From a virus (lineage: Duplodnaviria; Heunggongvirae; Uroviricota; Caudoviricetes), in IMG/VR virus record IMGVR_UViG_2531839532_000006: a DNA stretch of 13,767 nt. One strand, 5' to 3'. Position 1 is the first letter of the stretch, and the number at the start of each line of letters is the position of its first letter. Below the pieces are notes generated by a model. It ran no database searches. It saw only the letters and a program-made list of their open reading frames with translations, and had not been told where the DNA came from. Below, in pieces: positions 4,063 to 9,180 of this stretch. A program made the position numbers and the translations under genes.

Positions 4063-5109
4063 GTGCGGGTATTACTTCGACCTGTTCTGGTACCGGAACT
4101 CGGGCTGGTGATCGTTAAGCCGGGCCGTGAATCCATGCCGGTATTCCACAATACCCGGGTACTGGTGGAGCCGGAACCGAAAAGCATGCGTAATCTGCCG
4201 TCCGGGGTCGTTCCTGCCGTTCGCCAGCCGCTGGTGGAAGACAAAACATTGCTGCCGTTTTTCAGTAACGCACGGGTAATTCGTGCTGCTGGTGGTGCTG
4301 GTGCATTGTCTGACTGGCTGTTGCGCAATATTAAATCCTGCCAGTGGCCACACGGCGATTATCATCACAGCGAAACCGTTATTCACCGTTATGGTACCGG
4401 CGCAATGGTGTTGTGCTGGCACTGCGACAACCAGCTGCGTGACCAGACATCCGAATCACTCGAGCAACTTGCTCATCAAAACCTGTCAGCATGGATGATT
4501 GACGTCATCGGTCACGCAATAAGCGGTACGCAGGAGCGTGAATTATCTCTGGCTGAATTATCCTGGTGGGCGGTCCGCAATCAGGTGGCGGACGCGCTAC
4601 CGGAAGCGGTATTACGTCGTTCGCTGGGGTTGCGTGCGGAAAAAATCCGCTCAATGTACCGTGAAAGCGACATCGTACCGGGAGAGCAGACCGCCACCAG
4701 CATACTGAAGCAGCGCACAAAAAATCTTGCGCCGCTGCCTCACGCCCACCAGCAAAACCCGCCACAGGAAGAGACGGTGGTCAGCATTGCCGTTGATCCT
4801 GAGTCTCCGGAATCTTTCATGAAACGACCTAAACGTCGCCGCTGGGTTAACGAGAAATACACACGCTGGGTGAAGACACAGCCGTGTGCGTGTTGTGGTA
4901 AGCCAGCCGACGATCCCCATCACCTGATTGGTCATGGTCAGGGCGGAATGGGGACAAAATCTCACGATATTTTCACGCTACCGCTGTGTCGGGAGCATCA
5001 CAACGAGCTTCATGCGGATCCTCTGGCGTTCGAAGAAAAGCATGGTTCTCAGGTTGATTTAATTTTTCGTTTTCTTGATCACGCCTTTGCAACTGGCGTG
5101 CTTGGGTAA
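4063..5109 (+). CDS. ydfU: DUF968-type prophage protein (YdfU-like) with a C-terminal Cys/His HNH-like motif
   Basis: 348-aa ORF with GTG start, SD GGAGG 4 nt upstream. C-terminus CACCGKPADDPHHLIGHGQGGMGTKSHDIFTLPLCREHHNELH looks like a zinc-binding HNH-type fold. Position upstream of rusA and Q matches Qin ydfU (349 aa) as I recall it. Confidence 0.55.
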   Translation: MRVLLRPVLVPELGLVIVKPGRESMPVFHNTRVLVEPEPKSMRNLPSGVVPAVRQPLVEDKTLLPFFSNARVIRAAGGAGALSDWLLRNIKSCQWPHGDYHHSETVIHRYGTGAMVLCWHCDNQLRDQTSESLEQLAHQNLSAWMIDVIGHAISGTQERELSLAELSWWAVRNQVADALPEAVLRRSLGLRAEKIRSMYRESDIVPGEQTATSILKQRTKNLAPLPHAHQQNPPQEETVVSIAVDPESPESFMKRPKRRRWVNEKYTRWVKTQPCACCGKPADDPHHLIGHGQGGMGTKSHDIFTLPLCREHHNELHADPLAFEEKHGSQVDLIFRFLDHAFATGVLG

Positions 5110-5121
5110 AAGAGGTGACTG

Positions 5122-5496
5122 ATGCTCATAGATTTGGTTTTACCTTACCCGCCGACGGTGAACACTTACTGGCGACGCCGTGGCAGCACATATTTTGTAT
5201 CAAAAGCCGGGGAGCGTTATCGCCGGGCAGTGGCGCTTATTGTTCGCCAGCAGCGGCTGAAATTAAGCCTGTCCGGAAGGCTGGCGATAAAGGTGATTGC
5301 AGAGCCACCGGATAAGCGTCGTCGCGACCTGGACAATATCCTGAAAGCACCGCTGGATGCGCTGACGCATGCGGGAGTGTTAATGGACGATGAGCAGTTT
5401 GATGAAATCAATATCGTTCGTGGTCAGCCAGTATCTGGAGGACCTCTGGGGGTGAAGATTTACCCCATAATGCATGAAGAGCAGGTCAAAAAATGA
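5122..5496 (+). CDS. rusA: RusA-family Holliday-junction resolvase
   Basis: 124-aa ORF with LPYPPTVNTYWRRRG and RRRDLDNILKAPLDALTHAGVLMDDEQ motifs typical of RusA. SD AGAGGTG upstream; nin-region position immediately before Q. Confidence 0.85.
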   Translation: MLIDLVLPYPPTVNTYWRRRGSTYFVSKAGERYRRAVALIVRQQRLKLSLSGRLAIKVIAEPPDKRRRDLDNILKAPLDALTHAGVLMDDEQFDEINIVRGQPVSGGPLGVKIYPIMHEEQVKK

Positions 5497-6314
5497 AACT
5501 GGAAGATTTACCGAAATACTACTCCCCAAAATCCCCTTGCCTGACCGATGCATCGGCCTCAACGTCAAAAGATGCGCTGAGTATCACTGATGTGATGGCC
5601 GCGCAGGGCATGACACAGAATCGGGCTGAGATGGGGTTTTCTGCGTTCCTGGGGAAAATGGGCATCAGTATGAATGACAGGGCGCGGGCAACAGAATTAC
5701 TGGCAGATTATGCACTCAGTCGGTGCGATCGTGTGGCGGCGTTGAGAAAACTTCCGGCAGAAATAAAACCGGTAGTGATGCGCATTATGGCTACGTATGC
5801 GTTTGAAGATTATGCCCGCAGTGCAGCGAGTAAAAAGCAGTGTCCTTGTTGCCGTGGGGAAAAATTTATTGAAAGCATAGTTTTTACAAACAAGGTCCAG
5901 TATCCGGATGGTAAGCCGCCGGTATGGGCAAAGTGTACGAAAGGTGTGTATCCGTCTTACTGGGAAGAATGGAAAAAAGTCAGGGAGGTGGTAAAAGTTG
6001 CCTGTCCGGAGTGTGGCGGAAAGGGTGAGGTTTCCACCGCCTGTAAGGATTGCCGTGGGCGTGGTGTCGCCATTCATCGTGAAGAGTCGGTAAAACGTGG
6101 TATGCCTGTTATCAGAGACTGCCAGCGTTGTGATGGTCGTGGCTGTGAAAGACTACCATCAACGGAGGCATTTAATGCCATACGCAAAGTGACGAGTGCT
6201 ATCACGCTTGATACGTGGAAAAAATCAGTGAAACGCTTTTACGATACGTTGGTGGTTCGGTTTGACATTGAAGAGGCATGGGCGGAGCGGCAGTTAAAGA
6301 GGGTAACGCGATAG
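5493..6314 (+). CDS. Q: Late-gene antiterminator Q (zinc-ribbon-rich; Q82 / QuuQ-like)
   Basis: 273-aa ORF whose start overlaps the rusA stop (ATGA). Contains CPCCRG, CPECGGKG, CKDCRGRG and CQRCDGRG repeats. A promoter plus intrinsic terminator follow immediately downstream, as expected for Q. Confidence 0.7.
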   Translation: MKLEDLPKYYSPKSPCLTDASASTSKDALSITDVMAAQGMTQNRAEMGFSAFLGKMGISMNDRARATELLADYALSRCDRVAALRKLPAEIKPVVMRIMATYAFEDYARSAASKKQCPCCRGEKFIESIVFTNKVQYPDGKPPVWAKCTKGVYPSYWEEWKKVREVVKVACPECGGKGEVSTACKDCRGRGVAIHREESVKRGMPVIRDCQRCDGRGCERLPSTEAFNAIRKVTSAITLDTWKKSVKRFYDTLVVRFDIEEAWAERQLKRVTR

Positions 6315-6319
6315 TGTTG

Positions 6320-6347
6320 TTGATTTTTCCCGAATCTGTGGTAAATT
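6320..6347 (+). promoter_or_regulatory. Candidate late promoter PR' (-35 TTGATT, 16-nt spacer, -10 TAAATT) with presumed overlapping qut site
   Basis: Promoter-like hexamers sit directly after the Q stop codon and about 50 nt upstream of a strong intrinsic terminator. Confidence 0.45.
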
Positions 6348-6395
6348 TGCTCTAACGATGGGCGTTTTATGCCTGACGTTAGAAGATTTTTTACA

Positions 6396-6418
6396 CCCCG
6401 CCGCCTGGCGGGTTTTTT
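6396..6418 (+). terminator. tR'-like intrinsic terminator downstream of PR'
   Basis: CCCGCC-GCCT-GGCGGG hairpin followed by TTTTTT. Confidence 0.65.
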
Positions 6419-6538
6419 ATGACTGAAATCGCGTCAGTACAGTAAACGCGCTGGTGGCGGTGAATACCTGTCTTTCAGCTTGCTGGCTTTTTCGACAAGA
6501 GTTATTGGTGTGTCACGTTAACCGGAAAAGGAAAAGAC

Positions 6539-6736
6539 ATGCTAAAACAGCAGGATATGACAGAAACCGCCAGAGTGGTGTTTAATGAATTAAGCGTTAC
6601 CGACCCGGCGACAGTCGGGGAGATAGCGCAGAATACTTACCTTTCACGCGAACGCTGCCAGTTAATACTGACTCAGCTGGTTATGGCGGGTCTGGCAGAC
6701 TATCAGTTCGGTTGTTACAGACGCCTTCCGCAGTGA
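6539..6736 (+). CDS. Small hypothetical protein, possibly a winged-helix DNA-binding protein
   Basis: 65-aa ORF with a good RBS (AAAGGAAAAG, about 5 nt spacing). Its stop codon lies within an intrinsic terminator hairpin. Confidence 0.45.
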   Translation: MLKQQDMTETARVVFNELSVTDPATVGEIAQNTYLSRERCQLILTQLVMAGLADYQFGCYRRLPQ

Positions 6737-6747
6737 AGGCTTTTTTA
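6723..6747 (+). terminator. Intrinsic terminator overlapping the stop codon of the 65-aa ORF
   Basis: GCCTTC-CGCAGT-GAAGGC hairpin followed by TTTTTTATTT. Confidence 0.5.
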
Positions 6748-6763
6748 TTTGTGGTAAATGGGC

Positions 6764-6794
6764 GGCTGGTGGGTGTTAGGGGCACCCACCAGCC
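6764..6794. repeat. Perfect 12-bp inverted repeat (GGCTGGTGGGTG / CACCCACCAGCC, 7-nt loop) with no U-tract
   Basis: Seen directly in the leader of the methyltransferase gene. A second copy of the PR' core TGTGGTAAAT sits just upstream at 6752-6761. Confidence 0.6.
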
Positions 6795-6886
6795 ATCTGC
6801 TCATGCGTCCGGATCACAAGCAAACCTCAGGCCCACTGCTTTGCGCAAAAGCAGAATGAGCCTATCAGAGACAGGCTTAATGATCC

Positions 6887-7936
6887 ATGCTTAATACTGT
6901 AAAAATATCCAGTTGTGAGTTAATCAACGCCGACTGCCTGGAATTTATCCGGTCGTTACCCGAAAATTCTGTTGACCTGATAGTCACGGACCCGCCGTAC
7001 TTTAAAGTGAAGCCTGAGGGCTGGGATAACCAGTGGAAGGGCGACGATGATTACCTGAAGTGGCTGGACCAGTGTCTGGCGCAGTTCTGGCGGGTGCTGA
7101 AACCTGCCGGAAGTCTTTACCTGTTCTGTGGTCATCGCCTGGCATCTGATATCGAAATCATGATGCGTGAACGCTTCAGTGTGCTGAACCATATTATCTG
7201 GGCGAAGCCGTCCGGACGCTGGAACGGATGCAACAAGGAAAGCCTGCGGGCGTATTTCCCCGCCACAGAGCGCATTCTGTTCGCGGAACATTATCAGGGG
7301 CCGTATCGTCCGAAAGATGCCGGGTATGCGGCGAAGGGCAGTGCACTGAAACAGCATGTGATGGCCCCGCTGATTTCTTACTTTCGTGATGCGCGCGCGG
7401 CCCTGGGGATAACGGCAAAACAGATTGCAGATGCCACAGGAAAGAAAAACATGGTGTCGCACTGGTTCAGTGCCAGTCAGTGGCAGCTACCGAATGAAAG
7501 CGATTATCTGAAATTACAGGCGCTGTTTGCCCGGGTGGCAGAAGAGAAGCATCGGCGTGGTGAACTGGAAAAGCTCCACCACCAGCTGGTGGATACGTAT
7601 ACCTCACTGAACCGGCAGTATGCGGAGCTGCTGAGTGAATATAAACATCTGCGGCGGTATTTTGGCGTGACGGTGCAGGTGCCGTATACCGATGTGTGGA
7701 CGCATAAACCGGTGCAGTTCTATCCCGGGAAACATCCGTGCGAAAAACCGGCAGAAATGCTGCAGCAGATAATCAGCGCAAGCAGTCGTCCGGGTGACCT
7801 GGTTGCAGATTTTTTTATGGGCTCAGGTTCAACGGTAAAAGCTGCACTGGCGCTCGGGCGTCGTGCGATTGGCGTTGAACTGGAGACCGGACGTTTTGAG
7901 CAGACAGTCAGGGAAGTTCAGGATTTAATCGTTTGA
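6887..7936 (+). CDS. Orphan DNA methyltransferase, beta-class (DPPY motif; most likely N6-adenine)
   Basis: 349-aa ORF with motif IV DLIVTDPPYF near the N-terminus and an FxGxG-type AdoMet motif DFFMGSGST near the C-terminus. No adjacent restriction endonuclease candidate. Confidence 0.85.
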   Translation: MLNTVKISSCELINADCLEFIRSLPENSVDLIVTDPPYFKVKPEGWDNQWKGDDDYLKWLDQCLAQFWRVLKPAGSLYLFCGHRLASDIEIMMRERFSVLNHIIWAKPSGRWNGCNKESLRAYFPATERILFAEHYQGPYRPKDAGYAAKGSALKQHVMAPLISYFRDARAALGITAKQIADATGKKNMVSHWFSASQWQLPNESDYLKLQALFARVAEEKHRRGELEKLHHQLVDTYTSLNRQYAELLSEYKHLRRYFGVTVQVPYTDVWTHKPVQFYPGKHPCEKPAEMLQQIISASSRPGDLVADFFMGSGSTVKAALALGRRAIGVELETGRFEQTVREVQDLIV

Positions 7937-7947
7937 AACGGATGAGA

Positions 7948-7976
7948 TTGCAGAATTAATTACGCACCATTATTAT
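7948..7976 (+). promoter_or_regulatory. Candidate sigma-70 promoter for the tRNA genes (-35 TTGCAG, 17-nt spacer, -10 TATTAT)
   Basis: Hexamers with ideal spacing end about 10 nt before the tRNA 5' end. Confidence 0.45.
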
Positions 7977-7985
7977 TCTGCTCCC

Positions 7986-8061
7986 GGCCCTTTAGCTCAG
8001 TGGTGAGAGCGAGCGACTCATAATCGCCAGGTCGCTGGTTCAAATCCAGCAAGGGCCACCA
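7986..8061 (+). tRNA. ileZ: tRNA with CAU anticodon, ileZ-like (tRNA-Ile2 after lysidine modification, or tRNA-Met)
   Basis: Hand-folded cloverleaf: acceptor GGCCCTT / AAGGGCC, D-arm GCTC...GAGC, anticodon loop CTCATAA, T-arm GCTGG-TTCAAAT-CCAGC, encoded CCA. One A-C mismatch at the top of the anticodon stem. Confidence 0.8.
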
Positions 8062-8161
8062 TCACAAACCGCCATTAGCTTATCAGGAAGAGCAGACGAC
8101 ACGATAACAGGGTTGTTGGTGCGGGGGCGGGTCCCCGATGGCGGTCCATTATCGGTATTCA

Positions 8162-8235
8162 GCGTTGTTAGCTCAGCCGGACAGAGCAATTGCCTTCTAA
8201 GCAATCGGTCACTGGTTCGAATCCAGTACAGCGCG
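8162..8235 (+). tRNA. tRNA-Arg (anticodon UCU), argO-like; 3' CCA not encoded
   Basis: Hand-folded cloverleaf: acceptor GCGTTGT / ACAGCGC (one G-U pair), D-arm GCTC...GAGC, anticodon stem ATTGC / GCAAT with loop CTTCTAA, T-arm ACTGG-TTCGAAT-CCAGT. Discriminator G is followed by CTA. Confidence 0.8.
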
Positions 8236-8375
8236 CTATATTCATTCTTCCAGATTCCTTCCGGCAGAGCCTTATACTGAAATATACCTGGCTCAGGATA
8301 TTGTTGAAAATATTTTATGTTTGTCAAAAATAAAAGTTCTGTTAAGTATTGATTGAGTGTTTGTTATACGGTCTA

Positions 8376-8702
8376 ATGGTTTTTTCAGCATTAAATATTT
8401 ATCATTCATATGGTGTGGGTAGAGTGAATATTGATGAGGCGTCGGGGTGTTTCATCCTTAGGCAGCGTATTGATATAGTCAATGCAGGACGAGCAAAGGC
8501 CTTCAGCCGTTTGACAGTTTTGTTCTGTACTCCTGATCGTCTTTCGGGAAGAGACGTTATTATTCTGAATAGTGATGCTATACAGAGGGTTTGCGATGAG
8601 TTCATGGTTGCTAATTCAGAATTATTTGCTCTTGTTCAGGAGTACAACAGAATAGCCAGGACCTGTGGTATGGATGAACTTCGGATTACTCATCTGGGGT
8701 AG
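8376..8702 (+). CDS. Hypothetical protein (first gene of the cargo island), function unknown
   Basis: 108 aa from the ATG at 8376; the ORF track extends it to a TTG at 8349. No clear RBS; AT-rich upstream region with a weak promoter-like TTGTCA at 8321. Confidence 0.35.
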   Translation: MVFSALNIYHSYGVGRVNIDEASGCFILRQRIDIVNAGRAKAFSRLTVLFCTPDRLSGRDVIILNSDAIQRVCDEFMVANSELFALVQEYNRIARTCGMDELRITHLG

Positions 8703-9093
8703 ATACATATCTGGATTATCACTTGTTACGGTAAAAAGTGATTGCTTACTGTTTTTGTGAGTGGCATTGCAGCAGCCGGATAATGTCAGTGCTGGCTGAC
8801 GGTGTGCTGGTGGCGGGTGTGGTGGTTGTTGCTTTCCCGTTGCTGAAAAAGAAAACGCCAGACTGTTAGCCGGGTATCAGTTAGCGGGAGAAATTTTTAA
8901 ATACTTCACAATTCAGGCGGTTGACTGTTGTCTGGTTTGCGGGGAGTTTGTTAAAAGAAACTGGCATGGTGAATCCCCCTGTGCGGAGGGGCAATCAGCG
9001 AGTAGGTATATGGGATAATCGCGGATTCAGGTGCTGGTACTGAATTCACCGGGAGGCACCCGGCACCATGCAATGGCACATAGCGCCACTCTC

Positions 9094-9120
9094 CAGCCCC
9101 TCTCCGGAGGGGCTGTTTAT
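9094..9120 (+). terminator. Intrinsic terminator inside the cargo island
   Basis: CAGCCCCTC-TCCG-GAGGGGCTG hairpin followed by TTTATATTGATTTT. Confidence 0.5.
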
Positions 9121-9146
9121 ATTGATTTTGTCAGATGTGAGTAAAC

Positions 9147-9180
9147 TCCTTATGGACTTTGTTGTTTTAGTCCATAAGGA
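9147..9180 (-). terminator. Perfect 12-bp stem-loop overlapping the 3' end of the minus-strand ORF (possible terminator)
   Basis: TCCTTATGGACT-(10-nt loop)-AGTCCATAAGGA. On the minus strand it is followed by GTTTACTC, only moderately U-rich. It encodes the last residues (PYGLKQQSP) of ORF 9150..9485. Confidence 0.4.

Follow-up and report, generated by a model that had tools for sequence, protein, structure and literature searches.

The 13,767-nucleotide stretch of tailed-phage DNA analysed here (IMG/VR record IMGVR_UViG_2531839532_000006, Caudoviricetes; hereafter the window) carries a perfect 12-bp hairpin between its antiterminator gene Q and a gene for an adenine DNA methyltransferase (methylase). 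We propose, with a probability somewhat above one half (roughly 0.55), that this hairpin is the first helix, P1, of a structured RNA leader that precedes a methylase of the M.EcoGII family, is widely distributed and has not been catalogued before. The hairpin had been picked out by an original prediction, which took it, together with a repeated promoter-like decamer upstream, for a second engagement or pause site of the Q protein, an RNA processing site, or a recombination scar left by acquisition of the methylase module. The stem itself is as it was described: GGCTGGTGGGTG at 6764-6775 is 100% complementary to CACCCACCAGCC at 6783-6794, and no U-tract follows, the next bases being ATCTGCTCATG. 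The arms enclose a 7-nt loop, TTAGGGG. An intrinsic terminator was ruled out on either strand: the stem is followed by AUCUGCUCAUG without a U-tract and is not called in the terminator scan. The hairpin is not a product of chance, because the window holds just one other perfect 12-bp hairpin (two in 13.7 kb at loop lengths of 3-10 nt) and because its fold has a z-score of -4.8 against shuffled sequences.

The proposed leader and its immediate neighbours comprise the following features.

6539-6736, plus strand: ORF65, an open reading frame (ORF) of 65 aa with unassigned function, phrog_331
6723-6746, plus strand: second intrinsic terminator (6723-6740 followed by T6), with the ORF65 stop codon in its loop
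6753-6892, plus strand: whole leader element, about 140 nt, non-coding, between ORF65 and the methylase gene and including the methylase ATG at 6887-6889
6758-6804, plus strand: extended hairpin of P1b and P1 with a 4-nt internal loop at 6795-6798, as seen in minimum-free-energy folds
6758-6763 with 6799-6804, plus strand: lower stem P1b, AUGGGC paired with GCUCAU
6796-6804 with 6816-6824, plus strand: alternative helix P2, incompatible with P1b or P4
6830-6842 with 6848-6862, plus strand: hairpin P3, with changes on both sides at 5 pairs
6811-6821 with 6875-6886, plus strand: long-range helix P4, GGAUCAcAAGC paired with GCUUaaUGAUCC, 96-100% paired
6887-7936, plus strand: N6-adenine DNA methyltransferase of the M.EcoGI/M.EcoGII family, 349 aa, PF01555 (N6_N4_Mtase)

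The element is found far beyond this phage. Together with the methylase it is present in 2199 of 5426 complete E. coli genomes, in up to 7 copies per genome, as well as in many Shiga-toxin phages, where it lies between Q and the tRNA/stx genes, and in other Enterobacteriaceae prophages. Loci outside E. coli, collected by a search with the ORF65 protein at one genome per species, come from Kluyvera, Salmonella, Klebsiella, Citrobacter, Buttiauxella, Enterobacter, Mixta, Mangrovibacter and Scandinavium. Across these genera the interval from the ORF65 terminator to the methylase ATG retains 82-84% identity per column, where the ORF65 protein retains 53-86% amino acid identity, and the spacing between the core motif and the methylase ATG stays at 127-130 nt in 20 genus-level loci. 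The cross-genus alignments contain scattered single-base gaps; a conserved small ORF within the element is ruled out by these indels between genera and by the variation of its mini-ORF from 7 to 33 codons. What is kept is thus a structure conserved beyond its coding neighbours, at a fixed position 5' of one gene family and on its sense strand. The exceptions to the fixed position are found among phages that lack the methylase, of which the Stx2k type keeps the hairpin only and the R5 type keeps half of it.

The helices were defined by consensus folding and inspection. In 35 representatives, 95.6% of the cells pair, compared with 28-45% when the partners are slid along each other, and P3 and P4 show changes on both sides of their pairs. 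A covariance model built from this alignment recovers all members, including divergent ones, with E values of 1e-10 to 1e-36, and matches the element of the window with 129 bits (E 2e-27). Re-searching with the model yielded an alignment of 40 distinct sequences in which 97% of the cells pair (29-43% with slid partners) and in which 11 pairs have changed on both sides, as against 3.3±1.3 in shuffles, none of 500 of which reaches 11, and 3-7 with slid partners. In the model-based alignment P1b is paired in 100% and P1 in 96% of cases, and four P1 pairs carry changes on both sides: UA is replaced by GC at one pair, GC by AU or UA at another, and a third alternates between UA, UG and CG. Wobble pairs are frequent, with UA 18 times and UG 18 times at the P1 pair in alignment columns 18/38 and GU 38 times at the P1b pair in columns 9/51. 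P4, which ends at the base before the methylase AUG, shows AU/GC/GU and GC/AU/GU exchanges. For P2, to which the alignment was not fitted, the pair 6798/6822 (columns 48/72) is CG in 20 sequences, UG in 7, UA in 6, AU in 5 and otherwise in 1, and columns 50, 70 and 131 change together in a divergent group. To judge from these pairs, the fold is on the plus strand, the sense strand of the methylase, because the frequent G·U pairs would turn into A·C mismatches if the opposite strand were read. Of the suggestion that the hairpin is an RNA processing site, the part that stands is accordingly its RNA nature: the hairpin covaries as one helix within a conserved fold on the plus strand.

An anchor search with GGTCACAAGCGAACC that placed no constraint on the hairpin brought in divergent members, and these have rebuilt the fold with other sequences. 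Three loci (L272, L282 and L285) form the hairpin from GGCGGAGAGGGTG...CACCCCGTCCGCC and a fourth (L284) from GCGGTTAG...CTAACCGC. In L272 P3 has been reconstructed with compensatory changes, the P3 inner stem of divergent relatives is replaced by GCUG-CGAA-CAGC, and in relatives of the L272 type the AUG lies inside the P4 strand. None of the 4227 families of Rfam 15 matches the element at the gathering thresholds. The best candidate at E<=10, P26, was rejected, being below threshold (21.4 bits with 36 required), on the opposite strand and confined to the hairpin. A literature search on EcOnc small RNAs (sRNAs) and methylase leaders returned nothing on the 6753-6892 element, and the arm sequences occur in papers only as unrelated aptamer and primer matches. 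Structured mRNA leaders and Chi sites are known kinds of element; the leader family, and the overlap of functions discussed below, appear to be undescribed in the literature searched. One further observation concerns a GATC (Dam site) at 6881-6886, which is invariant within TGATC before the methylase start, in the 3' strand of P4, in all enterobacterial members.

How might such a leader act on the methylase? The enzyme of the window is 349 aa long and 95% identical to that of phage 1720a-02, which has been named as very similar to M.EcoGII, a non-specific adenine methylase (PMC5778455). The likeness to M.EcoGII and M.EcoGI, which extends to the length of 349 aa, is drawn through the 1720a-02 enzyme as that paper lists it. 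M.EcoGII is reported not to be expressed in the lysogen and to be deleterious when constitutive (Murray et al. 2018, PMC5778455), so that a leader which is tightly off by default and sits behind two terminators is plausible. We envision that the leader at 6753-6892 would form the 5' untranslated region of the methylase mRNA, reached by transcription from the late promoter PR' once Q permits read-through of both terminators, and possibly also by leakage past the ORF65 terminator. In the predicted lowest-energy fold, P1 and P1b make up a hairpin of about 20 bp, P3 forms its own hairpin, and P4 pairs the 12 nt before the AUG with 6811-6821. The likeliest model is a leader that is off by default: in this state P1/P1b would hold a strand of P2 while P4 would cover the ribosome landing site, and the methylase would stay silent. 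If P1 were opened or cut during lytic growth, P2 could form and the start site would be freed. Conceivable variants are an RNase III cut within the ~20-bp P1/P1b duplex, and an RNase E cut in the AU-rich spacer with the 5' stem-loop then protecting the message. Conservation, covariation, strand, Chi content and indel junction are shown by the sequences; the gating of methylase translation and the nature of whatever opens the leader are inferred.

In its full form this proposal describes a new class of RNA switch that shuts off a toxic, sequence-non-specific adenine methylase during lysogeny and turns it on in lytic growth, with P1 co-opted on the DNA as a Chi site that marks the boundary for gain or loss of the methylase/tRNA cassette. 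We put it forward tentatively, as an idea with the odds against it; if it were true, one 30-nt sequence would do two jobs, as RNA gate and as recombination signal. Like riboswitch platforms, RNA thermometers and RNase III-processed leaders such as the lambda N leader, the element is a conserved non-coding RNA before one gene, and it shares with translation-gating leaders the mutually exclusive helices, one of them abutting the start codon, and covariation in both states. It differs from them in lacking a known trigger (ligand, protein, temperature or nuclease) and an Rfam match, and in its weak predicted occlusion. M.EcoGII is widely used, and its natural silencing is left unexplained in PMC5778455, the searched passages of which discuss neither an upstream RNA element nor a silencing mechanism; a folded leader offers a concrete candidate for this control.

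In the enterobacterial lineage the 5' arm of P1, which is rich in G and U, contains an exact Chi octamer, and Chi sites are abundant in the neighbourhood.

6765-6772, plus strand: Chi, 5'-GCTGGTGG-3', in the 5' arm of P1, exact octamer
6786-6793, minus strand: inverted Chi in the 3' arm of P1, present only where the stem is perfect
6450-6457, plus strand: a further Chi octamer, kept in most, not all, relatives

The window holds 13 Chi octamers where 0.47 are expected, 9 on the plus and 4 on the minus strand, and about 112 kb of flanks from related loci in other genera contain 110 in the orientation of the element and 32 in the opposite one. In lambdoid phages rich in Chi, top-strand sites cluster at the right end, where RecBCD enters (PMC12315714; PMC3784561). 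The hairpin Chi would likewise face RecBCD entering from the cos/lysis side; the packaging site itself lies beyond the window. The count and strand bias in the window fit the Chi-rich lambdoid class (Zheng et al. 2025, PMC12315714; Bobay et al. 2013, PMC3784561), and the likeness extends to the exact octamer, the high density and the predominance of the active strand. That class is further defined by an early-left operon free of phage recombination genes and of a RecBCD inhibitor; the corresponding part of this prophage lies beyond the window. The difference is that one Chi here forms part of a conserved RNA helix, where it lies in the 5' arm and pairs with its inverse complement; neither PMC12315714 nor PMC3784561 mentions hairpins or palindromic Chi pairs. 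The hairpin Chi may be active.

These features raise the possibility that the element acts mainly on DNA, as a Chi site (here an inverted pair) that tames RecBCD on linear or rolling-circle DNA and promotes exchange of the methylase module, the symmetry of the hairpin being secondary. Beyond the density and strand bias, such a role would be in keeping with the conservation of the octamer: of 92 E. coli-type haplotypes found with an anchor inside ORF65, 90 still have it on the plus strand, as do 22 of 23 genus-level loci. In the diversity profile, which covers only the 76 methylase-type haplotypes, the 5' arm is nearly invariant (0.011) while the 3' arm varies more than any other local segment (0.12; flanks 0.05-0.07). 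The indel junction described below falls in direct repeats that contain Chi, 4 nt past the 3' end of the octamer, and Chi-rich lambdoid phages are an established class. Against this stand seven members (L141, L274, L289, L272, L282, L285 and L284) whose stem has outlived the octamer, in some cases with compensatory changes. The loci of several of these members abound in GCTGGTGG on the same strand (14 versus 0 in L285, 7 versus 1 in L272), so that Chi is, as far as these sequences tell, a lineage-specific property of the 5' arm that the helix can do without. Most relatives do not have the inverted Chi, which is kept in about a quarter of the 76 methylase-type haplotypes and is here a by-product of the perfect 3' arm. 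The flank, too, is unfavourable: A or G at positions 4-7 on the 3' side of Chi has been reported as enhancing, and the hairpin Chi is followed by GTG-TTAG here and by GTG-TTGT in other genera, which is not the enhancing context. A favourable flank as the cause of the invariant GTGTT is, by the same TTAG and TTGT, not supported. Finally, a DNA-level role would not account for about 140 nt conserved with covarying helices that are unrelated to Chi. We therefore consider a mainly DNA-level function doubtful. The hairpin Chi may nonetheless serve as a test case for how Chi-rich lambdoid phages gain Chi sites without disturbing other functions, and it suggests a caution for annotation, namely that "perfect" hairpins should be checked for Chi.

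Other inverted Chi arrangements occur in the window. A palindromic back-to-back Chi pair, CCACCAGCTGGTGG, occupies 7579-7592, within the methylase codons for LHHQLVD. It follows the hairpin Chi at a distance of 820 nt and recurs there in Kluyvera, Citrobacter and other genera, in some cases with the plus copy only. Four Chi octamers fall within the DUF968 gene between 4230 and 4753, on the plus strand at 4230 and 4288 and on the minus strand at 4694 and 4746, and form a second inverted arrangement. At some Stx2k-type loci, in the part homologous to 6770-6783, the loop-proximal 5' arm shows a homopolymer-length polymorphism: haplotypes that are the same in all else differ in having from 5 to 8 consecutive G residues.

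Several results weigh against the structured-leader reading or against its extension to a switch. The 40-sequence alignment is fitted to the structure of the model, so that its pair counts lean toward that structure. P2 is supported mainly by one strongly covarying pair and by one more in a small divergent clade. Forcing P2 to form costs 9-11 kcal/mol in two representatives; in a third the two states are isoenergetic (-54.2 versus -54.1 kcal/mol). The predicted probability of being unpaired from -15 to +3 around the start codon is 0.39 in native leaders and 0.44 in shuffled ones, and is lower in 23 of 34; this difference is small, and occlusion of the start site therefore cannot be claimed. 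The start region of the methylase has no clear Shine-Dalgarno sequence. Transcription of the element as a leader, and the position of its 5' end, are assumptions. Stx2k-type phages without the methylase keep the hairpin, so that P1 may have some function apart from that enzyme. A 21-nt block, AATGGGCGGCTGGTGGGTGTT, is invariant in 21 of 23 genus-level sequences (L141 and L147 differ), which exceeds what pairing would need and hints at an additional sequence-specific constraint such as Chi, a protein or a second partner. The flank of the hairpin Chi, as just described, tells against a second role of P1 in recombination.

Alternatively, P1/P1b might be an element of RNA processing or stability and not part of a switch, either as an RNase III site or as a 5' stem-loop that would protect the methylase mRNA after an RNase E cut in the AU-rich stretch 6741-6757. 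The dimensions might suit such a role: RNase III substrates span about two helical turns (~20 bp), and P1 with P1b provides 18-20 bp in an interrupted duplex (12-14 bp, a 4-nt internal loop, 6 bp), with UUUUUUAUUUGUGGUAAAU just upstream. The persistence of the hairpin in Stx2k-type phages that lack the methylase leader would also be understandable, and a processing site was among the original suggestions. Processing leaves the covariation of P2, P3 and P4 unexplained, and as a sufficient account of the element we regard it as improbable. It is compatible with a structured, translation-gating leader, within which it could supply the trigger.

Could the inverted repeat instead be a DNA operator for the ORF65 protein, in the manner of the C-boxes of restriction-modification systems? 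A small ORF, putatively DNA-binding and annotated in some records as a TrmB-family winged-helix regulator, does lie directly upstream of the methylase with the palindrome in between. The arms evolve asymmetrically, with changes in the 3' arm that are G·U pairs in RNA and would be mismatches in DNA; many genera have a 1-nt bulge in the hairpin; and ORF65 has no match, and no recognised DNA-binding domain, in Pfam or NCBIfam. An operator is very unlikely on these grounds. Attenuation through a leader peptide fares slightly worse still. The AUG at 6758 opens a mini-ORF (MGGWWV...), and a translating or stalled ribosome on it would melt P1; this AUG is nearly invariant, the first six codons are invariant in enterics, and the 33-codon ORF at 6758-6859 (MGGWWVLGAPTSHLL...), which reads Chi as Gly-Trp-Trp, has two Trp codons as in trpL. 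The mini-ORF has no usable Shine-Dalgarno sequence and its AUG is itself paired in P1b, divergent members have GUG or other codons in its place, and invariance at synonymous positions is not what a constraint on coding alone would produce. Conservation of a peptide is improbable, because the ORF, 33 codons long here, stops after 7 codons in many other genera.

The original idea of a recombination scar survives in part. The hairpin itself is not a scar, because it belongs to the methylase leader and co-occurs with ORF65 and the methylase across genera, and the boundary of the module toward Q lies elsewhere, at ~6394-6397. What does hold is that the 5' arm forms the left endpoint of an indel of about 2 kb whose junction falls in Chi-containing direct repeats. 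The left repeat, GCTGGTGG-GTGT at 6765-6776, and its right counterpart,

8806-8820, plus strand: right direct repeat, GCTGGTGG-CGG-GTGT

enclose ~2.04 kb with the methylase, both tRNAs and a 117-aa ORF. Prophages of the PhiR5_1 type match the window up to GGCTGGTGGGTGT and resume at 8820 onward, upstream of STnc100; they have a single hybrid repeat copy (L001, 2868-2885) and lack the intervening segment. This junction form occurs in 201 of the 5426 complete E. coli genomes. The sequences make a deletion more likely than an insertion, because the junction form retains only the 5' half of an otherwise always complete helix. As a recurrent Chi-flanked 2-kb indel, the locus offers a case for asking whether short repeats that contain Chi influence where mosaic boundaries fall upstream of stx.

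The decamer that drew attention to this region can be separated from the hairpin. TGTGGTAAAT occurs exactly twice in the window, both times on the plus strand. Its first copy was correctly placed at 6337-6346, overlapping the -10 region of PR'. The second had rightly been positioned after the second terminator; its coordinates, given as 6752-6761, were 2 nt off, and the stem does not follow it immediately, as had been thought, since four bases (GGGC) intervene.

6750-6759, plus strand: decamer copy 2, whose last two bases (6758-6759) are the first two of P1b

The expected number of occurrences of this word is 0.03, a comparison made post hoc. Identical 10-mer pairs number 187 in the window, 31 of 133 windows of 500 nt (23%) contain an exact 10-mer direct repeat, and a further one, TATCAGAGAC, lies inside the same 1.2 kb. 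In related phages the repeat is not conserved: relatives have TGTGGTAATG, TGTAGTAATG or TGTGGTGAAT at copy 2, and other genera have TGTGRAAAT. The module that carries copy 2 stands behind at least four different Q/antiterminator genes, with upstream Q proteins of 273 aa (here and in EH1910), 126 aa (phiP27, PhiR5_1) and 250 aa (Stx2k). The second copy is most likely a chance match to the PR' -10 region, because it varies in relatives and because the module sits behind unrelated Q genes. That copy 2 and the hairpin form a second promoter or a Q-loading or pause site duplicated from PR' is scarcely credible: the match of 10 nt (13 nt with one mismatch) and a TG motif upstream of TAAATG speak for it, and against it the best -10, TAAATG, lacks the final T, no -35 lies at a spacing of 16-18 nt, the promoter scan finds no promoter-like site near 6730-6765, inspection of the sequence 3' of the copy reveals no AACGAT-type pause element, the word is not conserved, the module follows unrelated types of Q, and 10-mer repeats are common in the window. 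A repeated promoter-like word is thus weak evidence for annotation.

The first copy, to judge by alignment with lambda, overlaps the real late promoter PR', which follows Q directly.

6320-6347, plus strand: late promoter PR', with -35 TTGATT at 6320-6325 and extended -10 TGgTAAATT at 6339-6347
6354-6359, plus strand: AACGAT, resembling a -10 element, where the PR' transcript begins, within the AACGATGGG shared with lambda
6397-6418, plus strand: first intrinsic terminator, tR'-like (6397-6412 followed by T6), from the terminator scan

The segment 6320-6360 aligns with lambda PR', having in common GGTAAATTTG in the -10 region and AACGATGGG across the -10-like element and transcript start. In lambda an element of the AACGAT type causes a sigma-dependent pause where Q loads, and by analogy AACGAT at 6354-6359 would be the pause element here. 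As in the lambda PR'/qut/6S RNA/tR' region, a promoter directly after the Q gene is followed by an intrinsic terminator. Transcription from PR' to the first terminator would give a short RNA of ~64 nt; the lambda 6S RNA measures 194 nt. The predicted RNA parallels both 6S RNA and StxS, which is 258 nt long (PMC7547250). The region differs from that of lambda in the length of this RNA, in its Q, which is a 273-aa protein of the PF03589 type with a DnaJ-like zinc finger, and in that neither the hairpin nor decamer copy 2 belongs to the PR' unit, both lying 400 nt downstream. The conserved ORF65-methylase module starts at ~6394-6397, at the first terminator; BLAST alignments to phages with other Q genes start at query base 95-99, which corresponds to 6394-6398 of the window.

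The window as a whole covers late control and lysis in a lambdoid prophage, and is 100% identical to E. coli strain 300709 over 6700-7950. Its other features are as follows.

253-1566: transposase ORF, 437 aa, with HTH_29/HTH_32 domains and a weak integrase-core (rve_3) match
4063-5109: DUF968 gene
5122-5496: RusA
5493-6314: Q antiterminator (described above)
7986-8236 and 8349-8702: ileZ-like tRNA-Met(CAT), argO-like tRNA-Arg(TCT) and the 117-aa ORF with a TTG start
8935-9124: sRNA STnc100, a match of 132 bits, upstream of the lysis genes
downstream of STnc100: holin, lysozyme and Rz genes

The ORF at 253-1566 suggests an insertion sequence in the early region of the prophage. Many Stx2 phages have the same order from Q to the tRNAs, followed by the stx genes; the window lacks stx genes, and the 117-aa TTG-start ORF is found at the corresponding position. 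The second perfect 12-bp hairpin of the window occupies 9147-9180, directly after STnc100, and consists of TCCTTATGGACT, a 10-nt loop and AGTCCATAAGGA. Upstream of ORF65, the non-coding block 6480-6538 is strongly conserved, with a diversity of 0.066 that is similar to that of coding sequence; it may be the promoter or operator of ORF65 itself, or another RNA element.

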